From positions 8,859 to 72,858 of IMG/VR virus record IMGVR_UViG_3300043466_001759: a stretch of 64,000 bases of DNA; one strand, given 5' to 3'. Position 1 is the stretch's first letter. Every line of letters starts with the position of its first letter. Source of the stretch: a virus. Below, one piece after another: positions 589-59,630 of this stretch. The notes under the pieces are model-generated. The model had not been told where the DNA came from. It saw only the letters and a program-made list of their open reading frames with translations, and did no database searches. The position numbers and the translations under genes were made by a program.

Positions 589-1146
589 ATGAAGAAGGCA
601 ATTTGCAAATTACAGTCAGTCAGTCCGTATTCTCAATCGAGGTACATCCAAGAGAAAAGAACGCGAGACGAAACGCCAGCAGCGTTCGAAGAGCGATCCT
701 GGAAGCAACGGTGCCATTGGAACGAAAATGGCAATCTTTACATTCCTCCAATGTCGTTCAAAAACTGCTTGAGTGAAGCAGCAAAATACAAATCCATTCA
801 GATCCCAGGAAAGGGAAAGTCGACATACACCAAACACTTCGAGGCTGGGATTCTTGTTGTCGAGCCTCTAGTTCTCGACATTACGAAAGACAGTATCCAA
901 CACGAATGGCTGCACGTCCCCTCTGACGGCAAGCGTGGAGGAACAAAGCGTGTTGAAAAGTGTTTTCCGTTGATTCAGTCTTGGTCTGGCACTGTCGAGT
1001 TCTTGGTGTTGGATGAGACTATCACTGAGGATGTTTTCACAGCACACCTCCAAGACGCAGGGAGCTTTATTGGTATCGGTCGCTTCCGTCCGCGTAACAA
1101 CGGCTTTTACGGTCGTTTTGAGGTAAAGTCGGTGAGTTGGAAATAA
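589..1146 (+). CDS. stand-alone RAMP/Cas7-like RNA-binding protein (putative Vipr-type effector)
   Basis: N-terminal strand KLQSVSP; YIPPMSFKNCLSEAA resembles the Cas7/Csm3 IPGSSxKG motif; C-terminal Gly-rich loop GIGRFRPRNNGFYGRFEV; AAGGA RBS before ATG 589; flanked by arrays. Confidence 0.8.
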   Translation: MKKAICKLQSVSPYSQSRYIQEKRTRDETPAAFEERSWKQRCHWNENGNLYIPPMSFKNCLSEAAKYKSIQIPGKGKSTYTKHFEAGILVVEPLVLDITKDSIQHEWLHVPSDGKRGGTKRVEKCFPLIQSWSGTVEFLVLDETITEDVFTAHLQDAGSFIGIGRFRPRNNGFYGRFEVKSVSWK

Positions 1147-1149
1147 TCC

Positions 1150-1589
1150 GGCAGGGTTAGGCTTTGCGCGTCGCGGCTCGTTGCGGCGTTGTGCGGCAAG
1201 GCAAGACAAGGTTTCATGCATCAGCTGAGAAGTCGGTGCATGGATTGACCTCGGCACGTCTCGTTGGTGCAGGGCAGGGCCCGGCGTGGCGCGGCTAGGC
1301 AAGGCAAGGCAAAGTTTCACATCTGAGGCGAATAGGCTCAGGTGTGAATTGACCGTGGCACGGCGAGGCATGTTATGACTCGGCGCGGCAAGGCAAGGCG
1401 AGGTTTCCTATCTGGGGCGAATAGGCCTAGGTAGGGATTGATTAGGGTTTGGCTGGTCGGATCACGACAGGTCGGGGCTCGGCTAGGTAAAGCAAGGCAA
1501 GGTTTCACAGCTGGAGCGAACAGGTCCAGCTGTGGATTGGACTCGGCATAGTAGGCCGAGGCGGGGCGTGGTAAAGCAAGGCAAGGACT
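1150..1589 (+). ncRNA. GGY-NN pentamer guide array, block 2 (units 3-7: 1150-1242, 1253-1346, 1357-1435, 1441-1534, 1540-1589)
   Basis: Five tandem units with strict 5-nt periodicity; units 3-6 end in ..RGTTT plus a 10-12 bp hairpin (loop GAGA or GCGAAYAGG) followed by RATT; unit 7 ends GGCAAGGAC plus a T run with no hairpin. Confidence 0.9.
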
Positions 1590-1612
1590 TTTTTACAAAG
1601 GGAACAAAGGGA

Positions 1613-2089
1613 ATGTTATTTGAAAAATCATCAGACACAAAGATCTTAGAGGACACGCTTAGGCAGGTTGCAGTAGGTGACATGGCCACTTACGAAAACC
1701 TGTCAAAAGCAATTGGAAGGGACGTTCGAACGTTTGCGATCGCTGCACTACGTACAGCCCGACACGGACTCATTAAGGAAGGGTTCGTGTTCGGCGTCGA
1801 GCAGAATGTCGGACTCGTCAGGCTTAACTCTACAGAGATCGTCAAGAGCACAGAAATGGATCGAAAGTCGGTGCATCGAAAGGTTAATCGCACACTCAGC
1901 AAACTAAGCGTTGCGAAGTACGATGAGCTCGATGACGAGAATAAAAGAAAACACGTCACGATGTCAGCGCAGATGGGTGCTCTGGCGATGTTTTCAGCGA
2001 AGACGGCAACCACGAAGATTGAATCTAAAGTCACTGGCGACTCGAAAGTATTGCCAGTCGGCGAAACACTGAAATTGTTTGGTGGGTAA
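1613..2089 (+). CDS. hypothetical basic protein embedded between guide arrays (possible DNA-binding accessory)
   Basis: ATG 1613 after AAAGGGA; the upstream ORF-track extension runs through array unit 7; ATYENLSKAIGRDV looks like a wHTH helix pair. Confidence 0.8.
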   Translation: MLFEKSSDTKILEDTLRQVAVGDMATYENLSKAIGRDVRTFAIAALRTARHGLIKEGFVFGVEQNVGLVRLNSTEIVKSTEMDRKSVHRKVNRTLSKLSVAKYDELDDENKRKHVTMSAQMGALAMFSAKTATTKIESKVTGDSKVLPVGETLKLFGG

Positions 2090-2093
2090 ATAC

Positions 2094-2312
2094 AACACGG
2101 CGGGGTTGAGCCGGGCGAGTTAAAGCCAGGAGCGGTGCAGTAACGCAAGACAAGGTTGCTTGTCGTGAGCGAATAGGTCACGACAAGTATTACGCATGGC
2201 ACGTCTTCACTTGAAACGGCGGGGCGATGCGAGGTGGAGCGTGTCGGAGTAAGTCTCGACAGGTCGCCACAAGGCAAGGTTGCTTACCACGAGCGAACAG
2301 GTCGTGGTAAGC
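2094..2312 (+). ncRNA. GGY-NN pentamer guide array, block 3 (unit 8: 2094-2188; unit 9: 2193-2312)
   Basis: In-register pentamers ending in CAA-GGTT plus 11-bp hairpins gcttgtcgtga-GCGAATAGG-tcacgacaagt and gcttaccacga-GCGAACAGG-tcgtggtaagc. Confidence 0.88.
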
Positions 2313-2341
2313 ATTTATAGATCTCAATCGGAAAGAACACG

Positions 2342-3003: not shown

Positions 3004-3495
3004 ATGCTTGTATTAGGAAGAAAAGTCGGAGAGTCAATCACTATCAACGGCGATACCGTGGTAACAGTAAAGAAGCACAGCAGCAAGATCTTTTTGGCGA
3101 TCGAAGCTCCCGATGACGTATCGATCAAACGAACAGAATTACTAACCATAAAAAGAGACGATGAAACAGATATCAAAGCTATCTTACGATTGGATTGTCG
3201 CTCTCAGGAATTCCCTAGCGAAGAATGGTTGCAGTCACTCGGATTTGTTATCAACGAATCTGAGCATGCTCTTTTTGCTACAGCATTACTGGACGACTTC
3301 TCGGGCAATTGCCATCCTGCGCGTGTCGAGCTCAGGCTTATGCTTTTTGCCGATCAGACTGACGAGTGGGTCACTGACGTTGTGTCATACGATGCAAGTG
3401 GGACTGCGTCTTCAGTTGGTCTGGTAAACTCCTGGTGCAAGACCAAGGCTGATGTCATTCGACTTGGCAAAGCCCTCGGTCTTAAAGCTTGGTGA
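3004..3495 (+). CDS. csrA: CsrA-domain protein with long C-terminal extension
   Basis: MLVLGRKVGESITINGD...IEAPDDVSIKRTEL is a typical CsrA signature, followed by about 105 extra residues. Confidence 0.8.
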   Translation: MLVLGRKVGESITINGDTVVTVKKHSSKIFLAIEAPDDVSIKRTELLTIKRDDETDIKAILRLDCRSQEFPSEEWLQSLGFVINESEHALFATALLDDFSGNCHPARVELRLMLFADQTDEWVTDVVSYDASGTASSVGLVNSWCKTKADVIRLGKALGLKAW

Positions 3496-3558: not shown

Positions 3559-3801
3559 TTAGAACGCATCCGAAACAGCTAATGCTTGTTGCGCCTTAGT
3601 CGGCACCCAATCATAGGGAATCAACCCATTTGGCAATCTGACTGCAATACCATTGATTCGCCTGCGAACGTACAGATGCTCTATGATTGATCCGTTATTC
3701 AGCTCTTTGATGCCGACATCCTCAGGCTCACCAAAAAGTATGTTTCGCCTTCCATCGATTGGGCCTCCAACAAATTCGGCAGGTGCACTATTCATCATCA
3801 A
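3559..3801 (-). CDS. hypothetical protein
   Basis: FVGGPIDG motif common in small phage proteins; last gene of the minus-strand operon. Confidence 0.6.
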   Translation of the reverse strand: MMMNSAPAEFVGGPIDGRRNILFGEPEDVGIKELNNGSIIEHLYVRRRINGIAVRLPNGLIPYDWVPTKAQQALAVSDAF

Positions 3802-3988
3802 ACCTTAGCGAGTAAGTCTTTAACCATTCCAGGTATCTTTCCCCGTCCACTTGGACAATGCTGATCTGCCCTATCCACCATCCACAATCCGAGGTGATAT
3901 CATGTTGGCCCACCCAGTCATTGGGCACTGAATACTCTACATCCCCAACGCAGACCGAGGCATTTTTGCTTGGTAATAATAAAAGCAT
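3788..3988 (-). CDS. hypothetical protein
   Basis: Fills the gap in the minus-strand operon. Confidence 0.5.
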   Translation of the reverse strand: MLLLLPSKNASVCVGDVEYSVPNDWVGQHDITSDCGWWIGQISIVQVDGERYLEWLKTYSLRFDDE

Positions 3989-4002: not shown

Positions 4003-4560
4003 CTAGTCTTTAGTTGACTTTCGTTGCTGGGCGAATCTCAACAGATCCTCAGGCCTGACCCTCCACAGGGCTCTCTGGGCTCCGCTAGGCCTGCAATCGA
4101 TCGCTGGAAGCTGTTTACTGTCAATCCATGACTGAACAGTCCTGCGATTCACTCTCATGCGTTCTGCGACCTCCTCTACTTTTAACAGCTCATCGTCCAT
4201 ATACTCGATAACCTCTTCTAACGTGATTCGATTGGGTGCTCTAGGATTGGTGAGCTCCAAATAAGACTCTAGGTCAAAATCATACAACCTGGACTGTGCC
4301 AAGACAGCTAGCTGCCGAGCTTCAGGCCATTTCCTGGCTGACCCAAGTTCCTCGTGGGATCGCCTGCAAACCACCAACAAGGCAAAACGCTTGTCCAGAG
4401 CCTTTTGCCTATGAACACCTCGACATATCTCGTGAACATCCAGGTCACTCGTGCGGTAGCCACTAACTTCACATCGCCCACCAACATCCGATCGCAATGC
4501 TTCTCGGACTGGCCTAGCTTCGTTATAGCGATTCCTCGCTCGATCACTCATACGTTTCAA
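4003..4560 (-). CDS. HNH-like domain fused to excisionase-like HTH
   Basis: RCEVSG..DVHE...VVCRRSH in the N-terminal part; LLKVEEVAERMRVNRRTVQSWI (HTH_17-like) in the C-terminal part. Confidence 0.65.
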   Translation of the reverse strand: MKRMSDRARNRYNEARPVREALRSDVGGRCEVSGYRTSDLDVHEICRGVHRQKALDKRFALLVVCRRSHEELGSARKWPEARQLAVLAQSRLYDFDLESYLELTNPRAPNRITLEEVIEYMDDELLKVEEVAERMRVNRRTVQSWIDSKQLPAIDCRPSGAQRALWRVRPEDLLRFAQQRKSTKD

Positions 4561-12625: not shown

Positions 12626-12793
12626 GCTTACCTCACAGCAAAACGGAAAGAACAGCGCAAGACACGACACACACCAACAGAGACATCAAGATCGCAACAG
12701 CGCATCCCTTGAACACTGCTAATGGATCTGACGAGAACTGCTCGTCGTAATCATCTTCGTAGCTCATATCAACCTCCTGAAAACAAAAACCAG

Positions 12794-12868
12794 TGGACGG
12801 ACAGGACTCGAACCTGCCTCTGCGACATCGCCCAACAGTCGCCGCTAAACCATCTCAGCTACTCGTCC
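12794..12868 (-). tRNA. tRNA-like element with abnormal 11-nt anticodon loop
   Basis: GGACGAG-TA-GCTG..TAGC D-arm; GCGAC-TGTTGGGCGAT-GTCGC; GCAGG-TTCGAGT-CCTGT T-arm; bulged acceptor stem. Confidence 0.55.
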
Positions 12869-12875
12869 GCTTGTC

Positions 12876-16641: not shown

Positions 16642-19600
16642 TTAATTGGTAAATACTTTTCTTAACTGACGGAGCCTGAGACTCAGCCCTTCCTTGTAGA
16701 CTACGACGCCTTTCTTCGTCTCCTTAGCCGATCCATAGTTATCTTCCCAGTGCTCTATCAACAGCCTCCTGGCTTCAGTCATGCTGATGCCAGATTTCTT
16801 GAGAGTTTTCATGTATTCATCTCGAGAAGTGACAGCGTCTTTGTAAGCCTGATCGCTCTTGTAGTTTTTGCGGGATGGATTAGCAGATGCCGCATAGACT
16901 AGACTCTGTTTCTTTTTCTGCTGAGCGTCCCTCGCTTGCTTCTTTTGAGATCCGCTTAGGCTATCGCTGTACGCAAGATCCTTGTCATCCCATTTCATGC
17001 CTCTCAAGTCTTTATCAAATAGCTCCTTCTTTTCCTCGTCGCTTGCTCCTGAATACTCAGTGCGAGGACCATAGGTAGAAACCGACACTCCAAAGAACGC
17101 CTCGAGAGACGCTAACGTACCGCTAACGACTCCAAGCTCTTTCTCGGCTGCAGCTATTTCCTTCCATGTTAAAGGTGTGAGACGAGATCCGATTATGTGC
17201 TTAGGCACTGCCAACGGATCTCCCTCTTTTGCTATGTTCCTGCCTACGGCATCTTTTCCAGAGACCCACTCTAATATCGATGCTGGACCTGTACCTAGCT
17301 TGTACCTAGCGAAATTAATAAGGAAGTCCGCTCCGGTCTTTCCACCGTATTGAACATCTTCACCGTAAATCGATTTGATCTCGCCACTGCTGGTCTTTAT
17401 TGTTCCAGTTAGTAACCTCGAAGCTAAAACAACAGCTGGCATTAAACCACCATCATCTTTGAATCGCGTCTCTCCAACCTTCATAACCCAGGCATCACTA
17501 GATCTTGGATCCCATTCAATGGTGGGCTCCTTCTCTTCGTCGTCCCCAGCGAGTAGTGAGTAGGCAAAGTAACCCATGGCCATTTTCGTAGCGTGCCCCA
17601 TGAGAGTTTGAATGTACAGCTTTGCCAGCGACACTCTCATTCCACGGTCGGCATTCCATTGACCTATCCATGAGGGGGTAGCCAACTGGAGCGGCAAAAT
17701 GAAGTCGGCTTGAATTCTGGACCACGTCCATCGTCTTGCCAAGAAAAAGAAATCTAGCCACGGACTTCCACCTCTAAGGCCAGTCCCTCGACCGCTAAAG
17801 ATGTTTGTTATTCTGCCAGCCTCTTTGATGTCGCTATCAGTCCACTCCATATTTGTGCCGAAAAACTCTCGAGCTGCCAGTGTGTCTCGCTTCTGAATAT
17901 CGTACAGATCAGCCTTCATGATATTCGCGAAGGTCCGGTTCCCTCGCTCGAAAGCTCCGTACGCACCAACCCAAGCGCGAAACGGAAGCAACCACGGAGT
18001 CTTGGTGTTCTCGAGCCATCGGATAACGGCCGACTGGTACATCTCTTCCAGCTGAGCTCTTGGCCCATCTTTCTTAGTGAACTCAACCTCTGCCTGCAGA
18101 TACTCCTTCGCATTTGGACGGCTCTCCAGGCTTTCCACCGAAGCCAGAGCCAGCCGCTGACTCCACACTGCCGGTATCGCCTCGACTGCCGCCATGAACG
18201 CTCTGACTGGATGCGATCGCGAATAGAAAAAGCCCTGCCTCAGAAAGAACGACAACTCCATGCCAAGCATCAGAGTCTTGGGTATTAAAGAGGTTGCTTC
18301 CAGCAATCCGTATTGCATCCACTGACCAGCATTCCAGGTTGCTCGTTTCGCCTTTTCGATCTCATACATCGCCTCATACTTTATCTTTTCGATCTCGAGG
18401 TTCTTGTCGAGGATGTCCTCTTCTGTGATCGTCCGCTTATTGCGTGGAACTGGAAGTATCCCTGACTTTGCTTCGTCACGTCGCTTCTCCCAGAACGCCA
18501 GACGCCTCTCCTGGCCTTTTCGGTATCGCTCCCAGTACTTCGCTTCTTCACGAGCTTGGTAGACAGGGCTCGCCTTCCTGGCTTCATCACGTACCTTCCT
18601 GAGATCAGCCAGCTGGGCCCGTAATGACTCAAGAACGCTAGAAGTAGGAACCTTGCCCTTTACCGCAGGAGCCCACGTTCCATCAGTCAGTGACTTCGTG
18701 TCAGCTTTTATATCATCGATTTGAGATTGCAGCATTCGCTCTGCCATGGCCAGCCGCTGCTCCTCAGTCATCGGCTTTCGACCACCCTGTGCAGGTATTG
18801 CTCCACCGTCATCATCGTAGCGACCCTGCTCAGCCTCAGCTGCTGCTTGCCTTGCCGCTCTTAGACGATCCTGCCACATCTTGAGCTGCGACTGGACCTC
18901 AGCAGCAACTAGGCTAGGCTTCTTGGTTGAGTCGACCTCCTTGCCATCCTTTACTTGCTGAAGCTTTTCTTTTAGTTTCTCGATAGCCTTAAGAGCTCGT
19001 TGTGTCTGCTGCTCAGCTGAAAGCATCCTCTGCTTCTTGGACCTCGGGAATATTTTTTCGTACTCAGTCTTCAAGTCGTCGCGTTGCTTCCTCTTCGCCT
19101 CGAGCTGGCTCCTTATTGAAGCTAACTCTGCGTCTGGCTTCAATGGAGTGCGATCGTTAACCGACCTTGCCAGCACAGTACGACTCTCGATAGCTTCTTC
19201 CAGTGCCTCAATGTCTTTGCTTAACATCTCGAGCCTGTTCTTGCCAGCAGTCTTGGCTGTGCTCAGCGCAGACTTGAGTTGGCCCTCACGAGACTCCGTT
19301 GAAACCGGAAGCTCTTTTTTGAGCTTATTGAACTCAGCAATCAGATCTCGCTCGATGCTATCTGGAGTAGGCTGTTCTCGTCCTGTTGATTTCGGTAGCA
19401 AGTTCTGGTCTCGAAGTCGACGAGCAACCTCTTCTGGACTTACACCATTCTTAAGCCACTCTTCACTTTGAGCGATGGCCTTAATGGTGTCCTCGATCTT
19501 TAAGGACTGACGAGTCTTTCCTCGAATAGCTCGAGTCTTTACTGCAATCTCCTCTTTGTTCAGTGGACGCCATGAACCGTAGTCAGACATGGCCTGCATA

Positions 19601-22600
19601 GTGTCGTATTCTGAAATACCAGGAACTTCGATCGACAACTGCGCATGAACAACATCGACAACTTCCCTCCAAGTTTCATTGGTCGCTCCATAACCGGCCT
19701 CAATCGCTAGGGTCATCAACTCTTTCGCCCTCGCTCCAATAGCAGACGGCTCAGGATCATCCCCGATCGGAGACTCTACCTTCTTCTTGCTATTGCTCTC
19801 CGCCCAGGCGTCTTTGATTACTGACATCTGTTCAAGAGTCACGTTTGGCATGTTGGCTTTAACTTGCGACTCCAACTCTAGGACAGAGCTAACTCCCATC
19901 TCTCGCAGAGCGTTAACAATACTGTCAGCTGCTGACTTAATGTCAGTGCCTTGCCGCGACGGAGAGTAACGAATGTCAGGATTCGTCTTATCAAAATCGC
20001 CTGTGTTAGAAGTGGCAGACTTCACCTGGGATGATTCAACAACAAACCAGGACTCTCCCGATCCATCGTTTTCTTCATATACCTTCACTCCATCGTAGCC
20101 ACGCTCTTTCATTCTTTCGACAACCTTAGGATTGTCCAACGCATGCCAGTCTATCATGCCGTCGATGAATATCTCGTTGATCCAGTCCCCATCGCTGTCC
20201 ACCTCGGTGTTCGAAACACCACCTCCAGTGTCTATCCACCGCTTGCCACCTTCTTCGTAGATCATTGGCTCTAAGATGTACTCAGCATCTTCAAAAGCCT
20301 TTGCAGAAGCAGCCTTAACTTCTTCACTCGATCGACTACTGATACCGATCACCTTTGGATCCATCAGCCTGTTTTGAACAGAAAGATAGACTGGCAAGAC
20401 ATTCTTTCCGTACTGCCTAGCATCGTCTTCGCTAGGGCTAAAGAAAAACCCGCTAGTCTCTACATCAAACGACGAGAGCATTACTGATCGTTGCGATGTC
20501 CTGCCTGACTCAAACACAGAGAACTTTTCGTTGGTTCCGTGATACACAACTAGAGGGTTACCATCCTCATCGACAACCTTGCTGTCACCGAACCACTTCT
20601 TAAAGGCAGCTGTGTCGATCTGTGATCCGCCAGCACCTCCCTGCGCGTCCTCCCAAGCTTTAATAGCGTACTCGAGAGGATCCAGTATGACCTTTGACGC
20701 ATCAAGTAAGTTCGTGACCTCAGACCCGATGTCAGGATTGCTAGAGACATACTTCGGAAGATACTTAACAAAGGAGTTGGCAAGAGCCTTGTAATCCGAT
20801 GGATCGCTAAATCGGTCCTCATCGAACTCGACTCCTGACTCACTGGCTATTTGCTCGAGCATCATGCGAGTGCCTCGAGACCTGTCTCTGAATAGTGCTT
20901 GGACTCCTTCGGCCCAATTCCTTTCTTGCAAGTCAGATTGGACAGTCCACTTGCTAAACATCCTCATGAGCTTACTGTCTGCCTTGAACGGATTCTCGTC
21001 TCCGAACACAGTCCCTAGAACAGCTATGTCTTCATCACTCAGTTTAGACTCAGGAATGGCTTTCATTATCAGCGGCATATACGCTCGCAACCACTCGTCT
21101 CGAGACACAGTAGATGGGTCTGGAAGCGTGTCGGTGCCAAATCCAAAACCGTTCACATTGGTGATCGCACTGCGACTAACAGCTGCGCGACCAGATGATC
21201 CGCCGCCCCATGCGTTTTGAAATGCTGCAAAACCATCCGCAACCTTTTTCATAAGCGTAGCTCGCTTAGTACCGATCTTCTCTCGAGGAGGATCTGTCTT
21301 TGGTACTGACGCCGCTTCAGCTTTCTTTCTTGCGATTGCTTCCTTGGCAAGTTTTTCCGCAAGGGCAGCTGTTTCCGCTTCTAGCTTATCTATACGCTCA
21401 GCCATCTCGGCGTACTTAGCGATCTGCTCTGGGCTCGGGTCAGCTTCAACGTGGCTTGTGTGCTGTCTGGTTAACCCTTCCACTGAGAAGTCAGACGCCA
21501 ACTCGGCCTGAGCGGCATGCCCTGCGTAGCCCCATTCCGAATGCCCTCTCTGAACAGTCCTGTTGAGATCTAGCCATTCCTTCCTGTCGCTTCCAGAGAT
21601 GTCTCCTTCATTCTTGAGCTCTCTAATACGAGCGTTAAGTATCGCATCTTCCATGTCCGTCAACGGTCTAGGCTTAGCGTTCATCTCTGAGATGATCTCG
21701 TACGGACGGCCTGGATTAGCTGCGAGTTCTGCAATCGCTTTCTTTTGCCTGTCCTTGACCTTTCTTGGACCAAACCATTCTCTAGGAGAGTCACCTACAG
21801 ATTTTCTCTGTCCTTCAGTCCTGGCGTACTTTGTTCCAGTAGTTTCCGGTAGTGAACTCTGCCCAGGCTTCGCTAACCCTCGTTCCTCCATAGCTTTCAT
21901 AAGCTTGGCGAACATCTCGTCTTGTCGGCTTGGAGAATAACGGATATCTGGATCAAACTTGTCGAACGTGCCTCGATTGCCAGTCGCTGACTTGATCTGC
22001 GAAGAATCAAAAGCAACAACTTCCGCGAATGGCAAGTCTGACTGATTGACTATCACCCCATCGTAACCAGCTTCTTTAAGCCTCTTGGTTATCTCGATCG
22101 ACTTCTCTGGGTCCAGGTGTGACGTCGGATCACCATCGTACACATCGTTAAATACCTTAGCTACTTTTGCGTCAACATAGTCCAGCTTGCCGCCAGACAT
22201 AGACAGAGCGTCTGCAGTGTTGTCTCGATAGGTGTCATTGATGATCGCAGGGTTCTTAATGTCAACATAGACCTCCAGAATGCGAGATCCATCACCCCTG
22301 CCCGCGTACCTACCAGCACCTTCGCTGTCTGTTGTAAAGTAATACCCCTTTCCGTAGTAACCTCCGTCAGTAGACGTTTTCGCCTTTCCTTCGAAAACGT
22401 TGAAGTCCCTCTTAGTTCCGTGATACAAAGAAAGAGGCTGTCCGTTCCAAACAATCTTAGAGGAGTTCTCAGGATCATTCTCCCAATCTCCGAACCATTT
22501 CTTAAAAGCTGGAGAGTCGACCTGACGACTCGGAGAATAGCGAATCGACTCTCCTTTTGTTCCTTTGGGAGAGATCCGAACACCGTTCTTCTCAAGCTCG

Positions 22601-25600
22601 GCGCGGAGTTGAGGCGTTACCGTGTTCTCTGGTATAGATAGCCTGCTGGGATTGACAATATCTGCAATCTTTTTAGCAACTTCAGCATCAGGCACAATGC
22701 GTTTGATTCGCAGATATCTTGAAAGAACCACTTCCCTGCCTCCAGGGAGCTTAGATGCAACAACGCCAGCTGTCCATTTGTTTGACCCGACCTTCTTACT
22801 AGACCCTTCTGCCTGATACCCACTGGTCATCTCACTTGCCGGAACTTCGACTTCAACAATGACCATCTTCGGTCGCTTGACCCCATCGTTGTACCAGGAA
22901 GCCGTAAACTGATCGTTAAGAGGTATCGGAGAAGCATGGAAGTACGGAGCATATGCTGCCCAGGTTGTTCCCTTTGGTTTCTTCAATGGGAATTTGCCAG
23001 CATACTTGCCAGTCTTAGGGACCAAGTCAGGCCTCTCCTCAGCAACCATCCACTTGCCTACAGGCTCAGGCTTCCTTAAAGACAGCTTCTTACCGTCGTT
23101 GATCTTCGAGGACATTGGCGGGTATAGATTCCCGTCAATCATTGTCATAGCGCGATACAACGTCACCGTCTCGCCTTTATCTAGCTCCTTAGCTAATTCA
23201 GGCCGTGCGATTGCGTACCGAAGACCGGAGTTAAGATCTCGACTGTCCAGTGCTGTCGCGTTTTCAATCGCGGCCGATCGCTGCGACCTGACTGCTTCGT
23301 CGATGTCGTCGAAAGCTTTACCTTCGCCGCTATTGTGACGATAGATGTCGGTTCGCTGAGGATCGTAGGCCATGAAGACCACGTCTGGCTCGCCGTTGTT
23401 GAAGTCTGAGTACTCCTCCTTGCTCCAGCCACTCGGTGCAAACTCATCGCTCCACTTGGCACGAGAGATCACTCGGAACCCATTGGCACTGTAAAGAACA
23501 GGAAGGAACGTATCGAAGGCGTCCAGAGTGTTACCGCCCTCTTCCACAGCAAGACGCATCATCGAATAACTAACGCCACGATGTGCGTTATTGGCCGTGT
23601 TGAAAACTGACACAATGTCAACCACACCGGCCTCTCCAGAGTCCTTCAAGGCGAAACCTGCCTTGCCATCTTCCGTCAAGAATAGCCGCATATCACGGTA
23701 GTCTTGCTCCGGATAAACATAGACAGATGCACCGAGCTTACCCTGGCTTTCACGCGCCGCATTTATAGCCGCCGTAAACTGTGACGCAGACTTCTCTGAC
23801 TTCTGTAGCTCTACGAAACTGGGAGCGGCAACCCCAACATCAGCCCACTCGGCAGCATCAGCCTCGTAGGTCGCAACTACGCCATATCCGCCCAGCGTTC
23901 GGCTTTCTTCTGATCTACTCCAAGCTCTTCCATTAGATCCAACACGGCTCCGGATGGTGGCTGTTGCTTCCCTGCCGCTTCTTTTTGCAACTGCAGCTCT
24001 TTCTCTAGTTTTTCTGGACCTGTCTTCTGACCCGTCTTTTTCTGTGGTTCCATCAGTACTCTCCCTATCTGTTGTTTCTGAATAATCTGCCGCACGACCT
24101 TCCGTCCAGGTCCACTCTGGCATCAAGCCAGTCTTCTGATCAGCAAAGGTCGTGTCCTCTACTTTTGCAGTACGATTCTTGTCTCCGTGCGGACCATAGT
24201 TCAACCACGAGTTTTGACCTCGGGTCTCGCTCGTGATCGCACCAACAGCATCACCCGTAAACAGCCTTACGTGAGCCTGCCAAGCGTTCTCTTCGCCTCG
24301 AGCTCTAAACCCAGCCCCTTCTAGACTATGGCCAAATGCGTCGTGAACGGCTCGGAACAAGTCGTTCGCCGTAACTGGTTTCATTTGCCCGTCCAAACCA
24401 CCGGAAGGCCATTTGATACCAGTATCTTCTAGCAACGGGTTGTCGTTGACATCAAGATCGCTGGTTCCAAATCCGTCCGATGTCGGGAATACGCCCATCT
24501 GCTTGTTTTGTCGCAGATCTCGCAAAGCGTTATACGGGCTTGACGCGTACTCAGCATTACTTGGCACATTCAAGTCCATAAACCAGAACTTGTACCCAGC
24601 GTCTTCCAGAGCCTTGTACTGAGCAGTGGTCTGCCTAATCAGCTCTTTGTACGCGGCCTTAACCTTTGGATCCTGGGGAGCATGAGCCATTTGCTCGTAA
24701 GCATCGGCTATCCTCTTAGCTCTCTCAGGATCTACCTGAACGTACTCTGCTTGTCGCTTTAGGTCGATTCCGTTTTCTTTTGCGTATCGCTCGGCGACTG
24801 CAACGACCTCGGGGTCCGGCCCGTTAATGCCCGGGACCGATGGCGAGCCTGCAAGAGGCGAATTCTTCCTAAGGTCTTTTCGTCCTCTTCCGTCTCCGGC
24901 CGATTCGGGTCGTTGTCGCCCCACTCCTGCTCTGGTGCCATCTGCACCGGATCCGGCATATTCTCCGCCATCCAACTCTCTACCGCTGCCAGCGTCCTCT
25001 CCTGATTGAACAGTCGATTGTGCTCGTCCTGTTGCTTCTGGAGAGACTCGCTGTCCGGAAGAAATCGACTCTCGTCGACCATCTCGCTTCGACGCTCTGT
25101 GTTCTTGGCTGACCTTTTTTGCTGCTTGTTCATAATCTAGTTTTTCAATCTCCTTAGATAAACCGAGTTTTCCCCACAACTCTTTCTCATAGTACCACAT
25201 CAAAGCCTGGAAGTCAGCTTTAGTAATGTCCTTTCCGATAACTTCCTTTACTTGCTTAATCGCCAGCTCAGCTACCTCCCTCTGAACCTCCCTGTCTTTT
25301 CCTGACTTTGCTATTTCGTACAACCCATAGGCGTTCACGACTACGTTTTTCGCGGCTTTGAATTCAGTAGTATTAACTTCAGTTCGCCTCGCTATGGCGT
25401 CTCGAGCCATTCCAGCTATCGACTCGCTGCTGACTTTCCCGGCTACCTTCGAGTTTCCTATCTTTTCTGACAGTTGACCATAAAACTTCTTTTCGTTGGC
25501 ATTTAGTTTAGACGGATCAACTGGAGCGAATTGCTGTATCGAGCCGTTTTCAATAGATCCAAGTTCATCGGCTTTTTTGATTGCCGACACGTAAGAACTT

Positions 25601-28600
25601 ATGGCTGTGCTTGTGAACACTGAAGCGTTGTGCGACTTGAGCATTCTTGCGTACCTGAGTGCTGCGCGGTCATTCCTCGCAACATCTTCGCGACTCATAC
25701 CAAACTTCTTCAAGTACTTGTCTGATAGATTTTTACGAAGCCCGTTATCTATGGACTTTTGAGCGTTCTCAACATTTACTGATTCAAGCTTGCCTCTTAA
25801 CCTTCCAATTGTCCTGGACCACCACAAGTCCATAGTGATAGTGTCAAATCTATAATTCAGGTTGTTGTAGAAGCTTCCTATTTTGGCTCCGAAAATCATG
25901 GATCCATAAACTCTAGCTGTAACCAGCTCGCCACCAACCTTGAATGATTCCTTAGAAATGCTAATGCTTGGATCAATGCCATCTTCTACTGTAAATCCAT
26001 GTTTAGAAAGCTGAGCTGCTGTCAATGGAGTGGCTAGAAAAGCCTCTACCCTCTCCCATCCAAACTTCTTAACAAGCTTGTCCATAGTGTCTAGGCTAGA
26101 CTCAACACCAGACCTATGCCCCCACCCTGACAACGTCCCTGTTTTCTTCCATCGCTCGTATATTTCCACCGCCATGCGGAAGTTCGGCAGAACATCTTGG
26201 CCGTCGCTACTGATAGCAAGCGCAGCCTTGAACATCATCTGATGTTTACCGGGAGCGACGATCTCTGGGAATATGTCCGCCATGTGATCCAGAGCGCCGG
26301 TGACCTTTTCATTATACCAACCGATAGCCCCCTCAGCCCAGTCCATTTTGAGCGCGTGCAAAGCCTCCTTGGCTAGCTGGTTTGCCATCCTTGCTTTTGC
26401 AGACTTGGAATGCTTAGAGTTGGGCGAAAGGGAATGACCAGAAGCCTTCTTGTAAAGCGATTGCAGCCACTGAGCCACATCCCACTTAGTTCTCTTAAGA
26501 TTGTTCTTCTGTGAATCGCTCCTGGCTTCTAGATCCTGGGGAATTAACGAAGTATCTATTCCGTTGGAAATGATATCCTCTGTTAAAAGCCACGGCTTAT
26601 TCTTTTCTACTCTTAAGCCATAAACAGCCATGTCTGGATCAACCCCAGCAAGCTTTGCTTCTCGTGCTATCGCTTGCTTTCGCTTTTTATCCCAAGACCT
26701 GAGACGATCCAAACCCTCTGGAGTTAGCTTGCTTCCAACAACAAGCCCATTGCTCTTAAGGTTCTTAATTCGAGAAGGAGTGATGTCTGACTTAACAAAG
26801 TCACGCTTCGAATGCTTGTTTGCAATTGCGATTAAAGCATCGTGCTCGTCTGGAGTTGCTGATCTAGCTGACTCTCTGATTTCTGCAACCCTGCTTGCCT
26901 CGCTGTCTTGATTTTCACTGCTTCTTGCAGGCGATGCTCTCCCACCTGAAGAAGGCGATATGCCATTACTTTCCATCGCAGACTCAATAGCCAATCGAAC
27001 TTGACCAGCTAGCGTGTCTGGCTCAGCGAACCGCAATGCCTTACGCAACCACCTACCGATCTTAGCAAGCAACCCCGGCTTGCTATTGCCTAACTCGTTC
27101 CAGAAATCGAAATCGCCAGCTCTGTCTTCAAGATAACGCGACAGCGATTCTTCTTGCCGAATGTCCTCGTTAGAGTTGAACTCGTTAATGAAATCGGAAA
27201 GGTCTTTTGTTTTTTGACTGAGATCACCCTTTTCTTTGAGCGATCCGTCCTTGTTGAATATGTCGTACTTAAGACCAGCTTTTAAGGCAGCTTTAAGAAG
27301 ATCTTGCCCAGAAACATCCTTGTCGACATCGACGGCCTTGCCAGACCTTTTAATGTCCGCCCTAACACTCGATAGCAATTCTCTATCGAAATCGCCAATG
27401 TAGTCTTCACCAGCCTTCTTTAATCCGTCTTGTTCTTTGCTAGATTCGTGTTTCGAAACCCAGTTGTAAAGCTGATTCCAAGCCTCTGGGTTTCCTACTT
27501 TCATTGCGTGAAATGCCTCGTGCGCAAAAAGGCCCCAGGTCATCCACTTTGAATTCTCACCCCTCTCCCTATTCATATTGGTTACGTAGTTGCGATTGAT
27601 CCAAATCGTCATGGTACTTGGCCGGAAAAGTCCAGGAAGACTCAGATCTCTTCCGTTGACAAATCGCATGCTAACGCCCATCTTGTCAAGGATCTTCACC
27701 TGCTGCTTTTCGTCGTCCGAGAGTTCTTCCGATGAGACTAGCGTTACATTCCCGAGCTGTTTAGGAACATCCTCCTTTGCAGCCTGTCTATTGCGACTAG
27801 ACGCTGCCTTCTTCGGTTTAGTCTTAGACTTCCTGGCAGGAGATATGGCGACAATGGCATCCACAAGACCTGGATTGTTGACCAGGTCATTAACAGTTAC
27901 TTCTGTACCTAGACTTTCAGTCAGACTCTTGGCAATTGCCTCTCGTTGACCAGGGCTTAACTCATTGAGGTACTTCTCCGCCACAGCCTTCTTTCTGGAT
28001 TCTTCTTTAGGCTTGCTTGCCTCATTAGAATCTCTCTTGGGCCTAGCTGGAGGCTTAGGTGCTTCTTTTTGTTTTGATGAAGAAGAGTCAGACGACGGAG
28101 TCCCCGCCGTCGCCTGACCTTCAGGTTTCTCAGGGCTTACTTGCCCTTCGGCTTTGGTTTGGGCATTGGTTTGCCCTTCCCTCCGCTCTTCGGTTTGCAC
28201 TTCACTAGGATCACCTCCTCTCTTGGTCTGTGGAGCATCTTTATCCTCCTGGTTGCGAACAGGTTCCACTGACACTGCGTCAGAAGACTTGGCTTCAACT
28301 TGAGCAGGGGATTTGTCGCCACTGCTTGTGCGTTGTTTCAATGGTGGCGGTGTAGCTGACTTTGGAAGTAGAGGTGGTGTCGATCCAGTCTTAGATGGTG
28401 GCGGCACGCTCTCGCTAGACTTTGCGTTAAGCTTGTTTTCGCGTCCCATGCTTTTCTTGGATTCCTTCGGCGCTGACGTCGTGTCAGTTGACTTCTTGTC
28501 GCTTGGCTTAGCCTGACTGAAATTCAGAGCCTCTTCCAGCACGCCACGAATCTGAGCTGTCCTCTCCTTGTCCTCGACAAAACTGCCGTTCTGCATCTTT

Positions 28601-59518: not shown

Positions 59519-59630
59519 AGGCTAGAGTTGGAGTCGAACCAACACGATCGCTACCATCAGGTCATGACTCCCTACTCTTGCGACACACTATCACCTTGCG
59601 GGTGACGCTCTACCTTTGAGCTACCTAGCC
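59519..59630 (-). tRNA. tRNA-like RNA with 5-nt anticodon loop and ~47-nt variable insertion
   Basis: GGCTAGG/TCTAGCC acceptor; GCTC-AAAGGTA-GAGC D-arm; TCACC-CGCAA-GGTGA; GTTGG-TTCGACT-CCAAC. Confidence 0.7.

Follow-up and report, generated by a model that had tools for sequence, protein, structure and literature searches.

Results

Organization of the locus

The window, which is the whole 64,000-nt stretch of viral DNA analysed here, contains nine tracts of five-base repeats between positions 346 and 2313. The tracts and the structured elements behind them are spread over three separate intergenic regions on the + strand and flank two genes, vipr and the gene following it. The locus lies at a strand switch, with genes for a primase/helicase, a helicase and a ParB-like protein as neighbours. 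Where contigs of four lake-water DNA runs covered positions 300–2400 they were identical, and they contained no informative variants or joints. No RNA run was listed as containing the locus. A blastn search of positions 340–2340 against phage genomes gave no match. An Rfam scan of positions 300–2400 (E up to 1) retrieved only a spurious lncRNA match of 14.6 bits, and at the gathering threshold no match was found in the array and only three tRNAs elsewhere.

The first gene (vipr, 589–1146, + strand) encodes a RAMP protein of 185 aa, the predicted vrRNA-binding subunit, which matches phrog_4652. Vipr proteins are small RAMPs with a single RRM. Comparison with the PDB entry 36pp_D, 'SUSP1 Vipr protein', gave E values of 1.6e-9 for the profile and 1e-5 for the single sequence (residues 27–181). 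The AF2 model of the protein reached a pLDDT of 92, with type VII Cas7 and Csm3 as top Foldseek matches (E 7e-8, prob 1.0). In SUSP1 Vipr, GGY contacts are described for the thumb residue R138 and the G-loop residues D177, W178 and R179. In the HMMER alignment R138 corresponds to R121 of the window protein, and W178 and R179 correspond to F166 and R167. According to the summary of alignment A1 (37 sequences), R121 and R167 are invariant and F166 is present in 90% or more. SUSP1 D177 aligns with an arginine (R165) in the window's Vipr and H17 lies outside the aligned part. Identity to the studied Felixounavirus proteins is about 24%.

The second gene (1613–2089, + strand) is a candidate vipr-accessory (vap-like) gene, for whose 158-aa product a winged-helix domain is predicted at the N-terminus. 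The vap genes of VIPR systems adjoin vipr, and their products are predicted to interact with DNA. Its AF2 model (pLDDT 91) shows the topology H-E-H-H-E-E, and the best Foldseek matches are GntR/MarR-type regulators, although these are weak (E 0.013 or worse). A Pfam search gave no match, and no similarity to the accessory neighbour gene of Felixounavirus was detected (E 0.17). Homologues of 1613–2089 adjoin vipr in 59 of 104 related loci.

Repeat tracts and candidate guide units

Each tract consists of 9–17 YNNGG repeats, and 113 repeats were counted in total. A pyrimidine occupies position 1 in 110 of these, and G stands at position 4 in 93 and at position 5 in 82. Perfect YNNGG was found in 62 of the 113 repeats, and tracts C1 (5/12) and C2 (5/17) are rather degenerate. 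Autocorrelation of GG yielded 38 at lag 5, 34 at lag 10 and 19 or fewer at other lags; the peak at lags 5 and 10 was not seen in neighbouring coding sequence. Published VIPR guide tracts consist of '9-16 YNNGG repeats', in agreement with the tracts of the window (bioRxiv 10.64898/2026.04.26.720920).

Seven units end in a hairpin, which always begins exactly 1 nt past the last GG; behind the hairpin stands a 5-nt leader whose register matches that of the following tract. Including one pseudoknot, the tails begin 1–5 nt past the last GG. Candidate vrRNA A1 (346–453, + strand, as all units) comprises 15 repeats (346–420), one U and the tail 422–453, a 14-bp stem with a GAAA tetraloop in which 14 of 14 pairs form (−20.0 kcal/mol, z −7.8; 39.8 bits with covariance model R1). 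It is followed by candidate A2 (454–557) with a 5-nt leader, 12 repeats (459–518) and an H-type pseudoknot as tail. Stem 1 of this pseudoknot is formed by 523–529/538–544 (−7.9 kcal/mol, z −3.3) and has a T-run behind it, and the loop bases 531–537 pair with 552–558, a loop-to-downstream complement of 7 nt.

Downstream of vipr, candidate B1 (1147–1244) consists of 13 repeats (1147–1211), a U and the tail 1213–1244 with a GAGA tetraloop, in which 13 of 14 positions pair and one A.C mismatch occurs (−15.2 kcal/mol, z −5.1; R1 36.3 bits). Candidate B2 (1245–1348) has the leader UUGAC, 13 repeats (1250–1314), a U and the tail 1316–1348, with 12 bp and the loop GCGAAUAGG (−19.8 kcal/mol, z −7.0; R1 75.4 bits). 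The same order of leader, repeats, U and tail is seen in candidate B3 (1349–1437; 10 repeats, 1354–1403; tail 1405–1437; −19.3 kcal/mol, z −4.5; R1 75.1 bits) and candidate B4 (1438–1536; 12 repeats, 1443–1502; tail 1504–1536; −22.1 kcal/mol, z −6.1; R1 75.7 bits). Unit B5 (1537–1600) has a leader and 9 repeats (1542–1586) without a hairpin. It extends, by way of ACUUUUUU, into the ribosome-binding region of the gene downstream. Beyond the candidate accessory gene follow candidate C1 (2096–2189), with 12 repeats (2096–2155), a U and the tail 2157–2189 (−19.8 kcal/mol, z −7.3; R1 73.1 bits), and candidate C2 (2190–2313), with a leader, 17 partly degenerate repeats (2195–2279), a U and the tail 2281–2313 (−21.9 kcal/mol, z −6.3; R1 72.1 bits). 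Hairpin, pseudoknot and tail-less units are thus combined in one locus; the pseudoknot tail (523–558) and the tail-less unit B5 had not been listed in an earlier sequence-only reading of this DNA.

A 1-nt-skip target search was performed for all nine guides against the own genome and 340 loci (2.8 Mb), and none of them scored higher than controls with shuffled repeat order.

Structure and covariation of the tails

The sequence-only reading had described five hairpins with an invariant GCGAAYAGG loop on fully paired stems of 10–11 bp, some with G-U pairs. All five hairpins are present (tails of B2, B3, B4, C1 and C2), but each stem has exactly 12 consecutive pairs, G-U allowed, and the boundaries shift accordingly. 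The loop motif occurs six times in the 64-kb window, where 1.06 occurrences are expected, and none of 100 shuffles reached this count; five copies lie in the array, and the sixth, at 28255, has no stem. Minimum free energies of the five hairpins range from −19.3 to −22.1 kcal/mol (z −4.5 to −7.3), and for each of them none of 200 shuffles folded as well.

Across the five stems 60 of 60 cells pair, six of them as G-U. Nine of the 12 pairs change on both sides and three never vary. This covariation score was reached by none of 500 shuffles, which bears out the proposed selection on RNA structure, and in a control with the partners slid by 1–3 columns only 33–38% of the cells paired. Since the G-U pairs would become A.C mismatches on the other strand, the structure of the tails is specific to the + strand.

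The loop itself is shared by the five hairpins as had been reported, but it is unlikely to be open over all its nine nucleotides. With RNAfold an inner C-G pair forms, with a G.G mismatch below it and a GNRA-like GAAYA pentaloop above it as the predicted apex. When two tails of a related metagenome contig were added, 91 of 91 cells paired and 11 of 13 pairs were compensatory, including the inner loop pair, which is C-G in six tails and G-C in one tail of the relative. An (R)ATT following each hairpin had also been noted. It is indeed seen, but R and A are the last two paired bases and the UU opens the 5-nt leader.

The GAAA hairpin (422–453) and the GAGA hairpin (1213–1244) had been assigned to a second class. 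Both exist, but rather than a different element they appear to be an isosteric variant, since they and the GCGAAYAGG hairpins look alike in having 14 helical layers under a GNRA-type loop. Among the seven tails with a 9-nt loop (five of the window, two of the relative), the longest complement between loop and flank was 2–5 nt and involved inconsistent places and loop parts. No pseudoknot of the SUSP1 type is detectable in these seven rod-hairpin tails.

Relatives of the locus

Among 53 stretches returned by a metagenome scan, one is a real relative, contig L382. Its Vipr is 86% identical to that of the window, and it contributes the two additional 12-bp tails. In one of these the inner loop pair is flipped; a tail loop in L382 reads GGAUA. 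The counterpart of the A2 pseudoknot in L382 keeps both stems by compensatory changes, as judged by eye from the alignment, and the same tail-less arrangement as in B5 is found ahead of the homologous gene. A scan of viral contigs with the 14-mer of the tract end returned 120 stretches, nearly all by chance, with about five real relatives recognized by eye (L006, L023, L036, L044 and perhaps L007). A further scan with handle and loop likewise returned 120 stretches. ARAGORN detected no tRNA in the array of L006.

In 100 loci of Vipr homologues 161 tracts were found on the vipr strand and 28 on the opposite strand. An uninterrupted hairpin of 9 bp or more stands behind 16 of 182 tracts counted, and four of these 16 are the window's own. 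Because most relatives lack such tails, the rod hairpin is no general requirement of the window's Vipr clade. None of 149 foreign occurrences of the loop motif (2.8 Mb) had more than four flanking pairs. The covariance-model scan suggested in the sequence-only reading scored the five tails at 72.1–75.7 bits, but over 99 loci of Vipr homologues the best foreign score was 24 bits and was driven by the CAAGG handle.

Discussion

Because the product of 589–1146 matches the solved SUSP1 Vipr protein and has a predicted Cas7-like fold, the locus at 346–2313 is, judged from its sequence, a VIPR system; beside vipr and a syntenic candidate accessory gene it contains nine candidate guide RNAs (vrRNAs). 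VIPR is described as a CRISPR-related, RNA-guided DNA-silencing system of phages and was first reported in 2026 (bioRxiv 10.64898/2026.04.26.720920). We consider the GCGAAYAGG hairpins to be the structured 3′ tails of the vrRNAs of this phage VIPR system, with a probability of roughly 0.85. Structure, covariation, the fixed position relative to the repeats and the homology of Vipr were computed here; filament capping and the NN code are taken from the preprints, and for the phage of the window we infer expression, processing and binding. The earlier idea that the hairpins cap guide units fits well with these data, as each hairpin stands 1 nt past a YNNGG tract beside a Vipr homologue and a capping tail is described in the preprints. 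The functions proposed along with that idea, a processing signal, 3′ protection or a protein-binding cap, may each apply, and diversified stems may also limit recombination between units.

The type II VIPR of Escherichia phage SUSP1 (bioRxiv 10.64898/2026.04.26.720920; bioRxiv 10.64898/2026.04.26.720927) resembles the window in having a structured element directly 3′ of the YNNGG tract, arrays flanking vipr and an accessory gene, which in the window is a candidate one, and units of about 100 nt. In the preprints, as in the window, tails of one clade differ by compensatory changes. The SUSP1 tail of about 40 nt is called 'invariable' and forms a pseudoknot, whereas seven of the nine units of the window end in a plain rod hairpin of 32–33 nt. 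The window's tails differ from one another at 9 of 12 stem positions, and only unit A2 carries a pseudoknot, unlike SUSP1. Tails of the Felixounavirus locus examined differ in stem sequence, as they do in the window.

In class 1 CRISPR systems the crRNA carries a repeat-derived 3′ hairpin handle held by Cas6, and its guide is bound lengthwise by RAMP (Cas7-like) subunits. The tails of the window are comparable to this handle, as both are stable 3′ hairpins marking unit boundaries on a guide that is, or in the window would be, bound by RAMP proteins. Nevertheless, CRISPR repeats are identical within an array whereas the stems of the window are diversified, and a crRNA guide is a contiguous spacer whereas the window's guides follow a five-base repeat code. 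No Cas6-like gene was seen adjoining the array. The apex of the tails recalls lambda boxB, in which a 5-bp stem bears a GNRA-like pentaloop with the fourth base extruded and is bound by the N peptide in antitermination. The pentaloop GAAYA of the tails fits the pattern G-N-R-(N)-A, and only its fourth base varies, the position extruded in boxB. This likeness is a structural analogy only, and nothing ties the tails to antitermination.

Alternative explanations

The hairpins could serve as mere processing punctuation, being recognized by a host or phage RNase that cuts the array and trimmed off the mature guide. Just 3′ of each stem A|UU is found, which we take to resemble an RNase E-type site. 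Many tracts of the window's Vipr clade, as well as unit B5, do without a hairpin. In the preprint, hammerhead ribozymes serve as punctuation in some VIPR arrays, and other arrays are staggered and lack separate tails. Nevertheless we regard this explanation as improbable: the constant 1-nt spacing to the last repeat is more in keeping with an element that is kept and docked than with one that is discarded, and so are the fixed length of 14 layers and the apical fold conserved across two sequence classes. Moreover, a stem of 12–14 bp is short for RNase III. In the complex of the studied VIPR system the tail is retained and resolved.

Intrinsic termination or attenuation between early genes is very improbable. 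Stable, GC-containing intergenic hairpins on the coding strand would suit such a function, and the neighbouring element at 523–544 with its T-run was indeed flagged as terminator-like. However, none of the seven hairpins has a U-run behind it, only UU followed by G, A or U, and none is listed by the terminator scan, whose total of 5 is close to the shuffle mean of 4.3. The arrangement of four hairpins in tandem within about 330 nt is not explained by termination either.

Similarly little weight is given to the array as a sponge or decoy RNA, in the manner of CsrB/RsmZ, for a CsrA-like protein encoded 700 nt downstream (3004–3495). The product of this gene has a CsrA domain (Pfam E 8.6e-12), and the AAGG repeats as well as GGAUU at the stem bases are loosely like GGA sites, but no GGA lies in the loops, and at the stem base the GGA is engaged in pairing. 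The NTase-like and CsrA-like genes downstream are present in none of the 104 related VIPR loci, where tracts and tails track vipr, and in L382 the same tails occur although the downstream genes are unrelated. Furthermore, the 5-nt repeat matches exactly the Vipr code given in the preprints.

The elements might instead function as DNA, be it as cruciforms, as recombination sites or as origin iterons next to the divergent replication module, which could be suggested by the strand switch and the primase/helicase, helicase and ParB-like neighbours. This is least probable of all, as six of the 60 stem cells are G-U pairs that turn into A.C on the other strand, the tracts follow the strand of the genes (161 vs 28) and the units are spread over three intergenic regions instead of one. 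Further candidates were dropped: N4-like hairpin promoters, as the 4862-aa ORF encodes a polyvalent protein with an ART domain and not an RNA polymerase; a G-quadruplex, as the relative L248 has NNGAC repeats; and a sigma-54 promoter and a site for a TRAP-like ring protein, which gave way to the Vipr match.

Proposed role of the tails

If the hairpins are vrRNA tails, the + strand of 346–2313 most probably yields a transcript that is cleaved into units of about 90–125 nt, each with a 5-nt UUGAC-like leader, 9–17 YNNGG repeats, a single U and a tail hairpin. One Vipr protomer would occupy each repeat, hiding GGY and presenting the NN dinucleotides. The tail would act as a rigid rod of fixed length that comes in two builds. 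One consists of a 12-bp stem with a G.G mismatch, a single pair and the GNRA-like GAAYA pentaloop on top, the other of a 14-bp stem that bears a GNRA tetraloop. The tail may mark the end of the Vipr filament and set its register, protect the 3′ terminus against exonucleases and direct cleavage between units to a position immediately past the stem. For these boundary, protection and cut-placing roles, which would parallel those of the 3′ pseudoknot of the SUSP1 vrRNA and of the crRNA repeat handle, we see slightly better than even chances. According to the preprints, the tail 'caps' the variable region of the vrRNA in the model VIPR system, the 3′ pseudoknot caps the RNA in cryo-EM structures with the adjoining protomers 8–12 resolved in all DNA-unwinding intermediates, and a solo vrRNA is regarded as able to assemble Vipr by virtue of sharing the tail. 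Constraint would act on the helix geometry, the two basal pairs and the apical fold alone, so that the stems drift by compensatory change.

A more far-reaching proposal is that the tail is a molecular ruler, of which the 14-layer helix and the GNRA-type tip are read while the stem sequence is free, that the diversification of the stems is itself selected and that tail types correspond to guide classes. We regard this as rather doubtful. The reader of the tail geometry would be Vipr or the accessory protein. In SUSP1-family phages, as reported in the preprints, rivals aim vrRNAs at the repeat-tail junction of their competitors' vrRNA genes. If the ruler proposal is true, one rival guide would be unable to silence all units with diversified stems; blocking of guide-deleting recombination could equally drive the diversification. 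Pseudoknot, rod and tail-less units would then represent distinct guide classes, differing for example in loading or time of expression.

With these nine candidate guides an uncultured lake-water phage joins the known carriers of VIPR, and no new class of system is revealed. The rod tail, the two apparently isosteric tail classes and the mixed endings in one locus are not described in the available parts of the VIPR preprints. The SUSP1 pseudoknot is the only structurally studied VIPR tail in these sources, and the rod hairpin with its GNRA-type tip would be a second, simpler design. From its compensatory variation, constraint is seen to rest on its length, on the two basal pairs and on the apical module, and the remaining stem is free. 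This may bear on how Vipr filaments terminate or nucleate on RNA, on how arrays are cut into guides and on the minimal tail of an engineered vrRNA.

Organization of the guide array

The window covers bases 8859-72858 of a viral record that is 72,858 bp long and carries direct terminal repeats. The locus of interest (340-2320, + strand) consists of three intergenic regions around two genes, 589-1146 and 1613-2089, and its sequence is identical, without variants, in four lake-water DNA runs wherever their contigs cover 300-2400; no RNA run was found to contain it. Nine G-rich tracts show a strict 5-nt period: GG autocorrelation over 967 nt of tracts gave 38 at lag 5 and 34 at lag 10, with 19 or fewer at other lags, and the same count revealed no lag-5/10 peak in flanking coding sequence. 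Read in a YNNGG register, the tracts hold 113 repeats with a pyrimidine at position 1 (110/113) and G at positions 4 (93/113) and 5 (82/113), while positions 2-3 are variable.

Each tract belongs to one candidate guide RNA (vrRNA). Units B2 (13 repeats), B3 (10 repeats) and C1 (12 repeats) end in a 12-bp hairpin with a GCGAAUAGG loop, and B4 (12 repeats) and C2 (17 repeats) in a 12-bp hairpin with a GCGAACAGG loop; in the order B2, B3, B4, C1 and C2, these five lie at 1316-1348, 1405-1437, 1504-1536, 2157-2189 and 2281-2313 (+). A1 (15 repeats) and B1 (13 repeats) end in tetraloop hairpins, A2 (12 repeats) in an H-type pseudoknot, and B5 (9 repeats) has no tail, either here or in L382, a metagenome contig with a closely related locus. 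Every hairpin begins 1 nt past the end of its tract and is followed by a 5-nt leader in register with the next tract (UUGAC, UUGAU, UUGGA, UUACG or UUUAC), which gives a unit length of 89-124 nt. This spacing, at a locus with a Vipr homologue, bears out the sequence-only reading in assigning the hairpins to guide units.

The locus encodes a Vipr homologue

A profile built from the 589-1146 (+) protein together with 36 homologues matched PDB chain 36pp_D, 'SUSP1 Vipr protein', with E 1.6e-9, and the single sequence did so with E 1e-5. The closest structures to its AF2 model (pLDDT 92) are Cas7-type RAMPs (type VII Cas7, Csm3; E 7e-8). One preprint describes Vipr as a small ancestral RAMP binding ~100-nt vrRNAs, in each of which 9-16 YNNGG repeats lead into a structured 'tail' at the 3' end; this 'caps' the variable region like the repeat handle on a crRNA spacer. 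Double-stranded DNA is read by the NN dinucleotides, every third base being skipped; vipr is followed by a vipr-accessory gene (vap), and seven types with varied array architectures are distinguished (bioRxiv 10.64898/2026.04.26.720920). The window locus matches this description point by point, and we therefore regard its hairpins as vrRNA 3' tails of a phage VIPR system, with a probability of about 0.85. Rfam gave no match in the array (300-2400), and a search under the skipping rule over 2.8 Mb (the phage's own genome and 340 loci) found no target above shuffled-order controls.

The protein of 1613-2089 (+) is predicted to adopt a winged-helix topology (pLDDT 91), and its homologues adjoin vipr at 59 of 104 loci. 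As Foldseek matches to GntR/MarR-type regulators were weak (best E 0.013) and no similarity to the Felixounavirus gene beside vipr was found, it is a candidate vap only. Directly after the last vrRNA tail lies 2342-2971 (+; 209 aa), which matches phage nucleotidyltransferase-like PHROGs. In the 163-aa product of 3004-3495 (+), Pfam places a CsrA domain at the N terminus (residues 1-48, E 8.6e-12), while the C-terminal extension (~110 aa) matches no family. Neither gene has a counterpart at any of the 104 related loci, which places the CsrA-like gene outside the VIPR cassette.

Elsewhere in the window, a 4862-aa ORF (16642-31230, -) contains an ART-PolyVal ADP-ribosyltransferase domain (E 9.5e-50); it is a polyvalent protein, a type presumed to be delivered along with the phage DNA. 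A 112-nt tRNA (59519-59630, -) was called by Rfam and not by ARAGORN and may contain an intron or insert; a tRNA-Pro (12792-12870, -) was called by ARAGORN and not in the Rfam gathering-threshold scan.

Structure of the tails

The GCGAAYAGG loop motif occurs six times in the window (1.06 expected), five times in the array region, where exactly 12 consecutive pairs flank each copy, not the 10-11 bp claimed earlier. Folding energies range from -19.3 to -22.1 kcal/mol (z -4.5 to -7.3) and were equalled by none of 200 shuffles for each hairpin. In the ungapped alignment all 60 stem cells are paired and both sides change in 9 of 12 pairs, a covariation score reached by 0/500 shuffles; with partners slid out of register only 33-38% of cells pair. 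The proposal of covarying hairpins with a common loop thus stands, and since 6/60 stem cells are G-U, the structure is that of the + strand. The second, tetraloop class also proved real, with 14 bp and a GAAA loop in A1 (422-453, +) and 13/14 pairs and a GAGA loop in B1 (1213-1244, +).

RNAfold predicted an inner loop pair, which among the seven 9-nt-loop tails (five here, two in L382) is C-G in six and G-C in one. On our reading the '9-nt loop' would comprise a G.G mismatch and, above it, a single pair closing a G-N-R-(N)-A pentaloop in which only the fourth base varies. In the boxB fold the variable base is likewise the fourth. The tetraloop class, with its 14 bp and GNRA loop, then appears isosteric with the 12-bp class, in which the mismatch and the pair lead up to a GNRA-like fold, and both classes would present the same tip at equal distance from the last repeat. 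A flank scan detected no conserved pseudoknot partner for the seven loops.

The A2 tail (519-558, +), directly upstream of vipr, pairs stem 523-529/538-544 and, through a 7-nt complement, loop 531-537 with 552-558. In its L382 counterpart both stems are kept via compensatory changes (alignment judged by eye). A T-run follows the stem, and the tail may double as a terminator ahead of vipr.

Comparison with related loci

Homologues of the window Vipr (40-79% identical) were collected at 100 loci, 80 on viral contigs and 20 in genome bins. With vipr set on +, these contain 161 GG-lag-5 tracts on + versus 28 on -, and at least one + strand tract occurs at 58 loci. Among cultured phages, a homologue was detectable only in the Felixounavirus/SUSP1 group (~24% identity). 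The covariance-model scan that the sequence-only reading had proposed, run with the five 12-bp tails as model over the window and 99 Vipr loci, recovered all seven window tails (72-76 bits for the five, 40 and 36 bits for the tetraloop tails) but no foreign tail in the 99 loci, the top foreign score being 24 bits. Hairpins with no interruption over 9 bp or more follow 16 of the 182 tracts counted in the window and related loci, four of the 16 being the window's own; many tracts lead directly into a ribosome-binding site.

L382, with a Vipr 86% identical and unchanged cassette order, adds two 12-bp tails (52 and 48 bits), one combining the window's loop with another stem and one a GGGGAUACG loop with a stem resembling the tetraloop class. 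Together with the window's five, 91/91 cells are paired and 11/13 pairs are compensatory, inner loop pair included. Its cassette (1206-2712, -, of a 4.3-kb contig) is smaller, ~five units versus nine. The guides differ from the window's and the tail types are identical, indicating guide turnover between close relatives. Beyond the last tail, L382 and the window carry unrelated genes, so the cassette ends at that tail.

In L248 (Vipr 76% identical) NNGAC pentamers replace NNGGC at 3800-3890 and 4375-4450, in line with the 'related consensus' of bioRxiv 10.64898/2026.04.26.720920; this suggests that repeat specificity has shifted within one Vipr clade. Between two tracts of L006 (~3775-3830), a tRNA-like minihelix with a 7-bp acceptor-like stem and a GGTTCGACTCC T-arm was seen by eye, where ARAGORN called no tRNA; in that array it may act as a processing signal of the RNase P/Z type.

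Proposed role of the tails

According to two further preprints, one protomer binds per repeat, the RNA is capped by a 3' pseudoknot, and every DNA-unwinding intermediate resolves protomers 8-12, those nearest the pseudoknot (bioRxiv 10.64898/2026.04.26.720927); the tail that a solo vrRNA shares is taken to be what allows Vipr to assemble on it, and rival vrRNAs target the repeat-tail junction (bioRxiv 10.64898/2026.10.15.759431). We infer that vrRNAs of the window phage are expressed, processed and bound by Vipr, and a capping role may be carried over from the SUSP1 work. Most likely the tail determines where the Vipr filament ends on the 3' side and in which register it lies, and it would also shield the RNA 3' end and place the cut between units at A|UU directly 3' of the stem; we rate these specific roles as somewhat better than an even guess.

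That the hairpins are a disposable processing signal seems improbable. Terminators are unlikely because the stems lack a U-run and a terminator scan called none of the hairpins. An array acting as a CsrA sponge is unlikely, the CsrA-like gene being missing from all 104 related loci, and the G-U pairs, together with the strand bias of the tracts, make action at the DNA level improbable. The RNA structure is genuine and strongly supported, and it is of a known kind, the VIPR vrRNA tail; the rod-hairpin, absent from the descriptions in the consulted parts of the three VIPR preprints, is a variant form of this tail.
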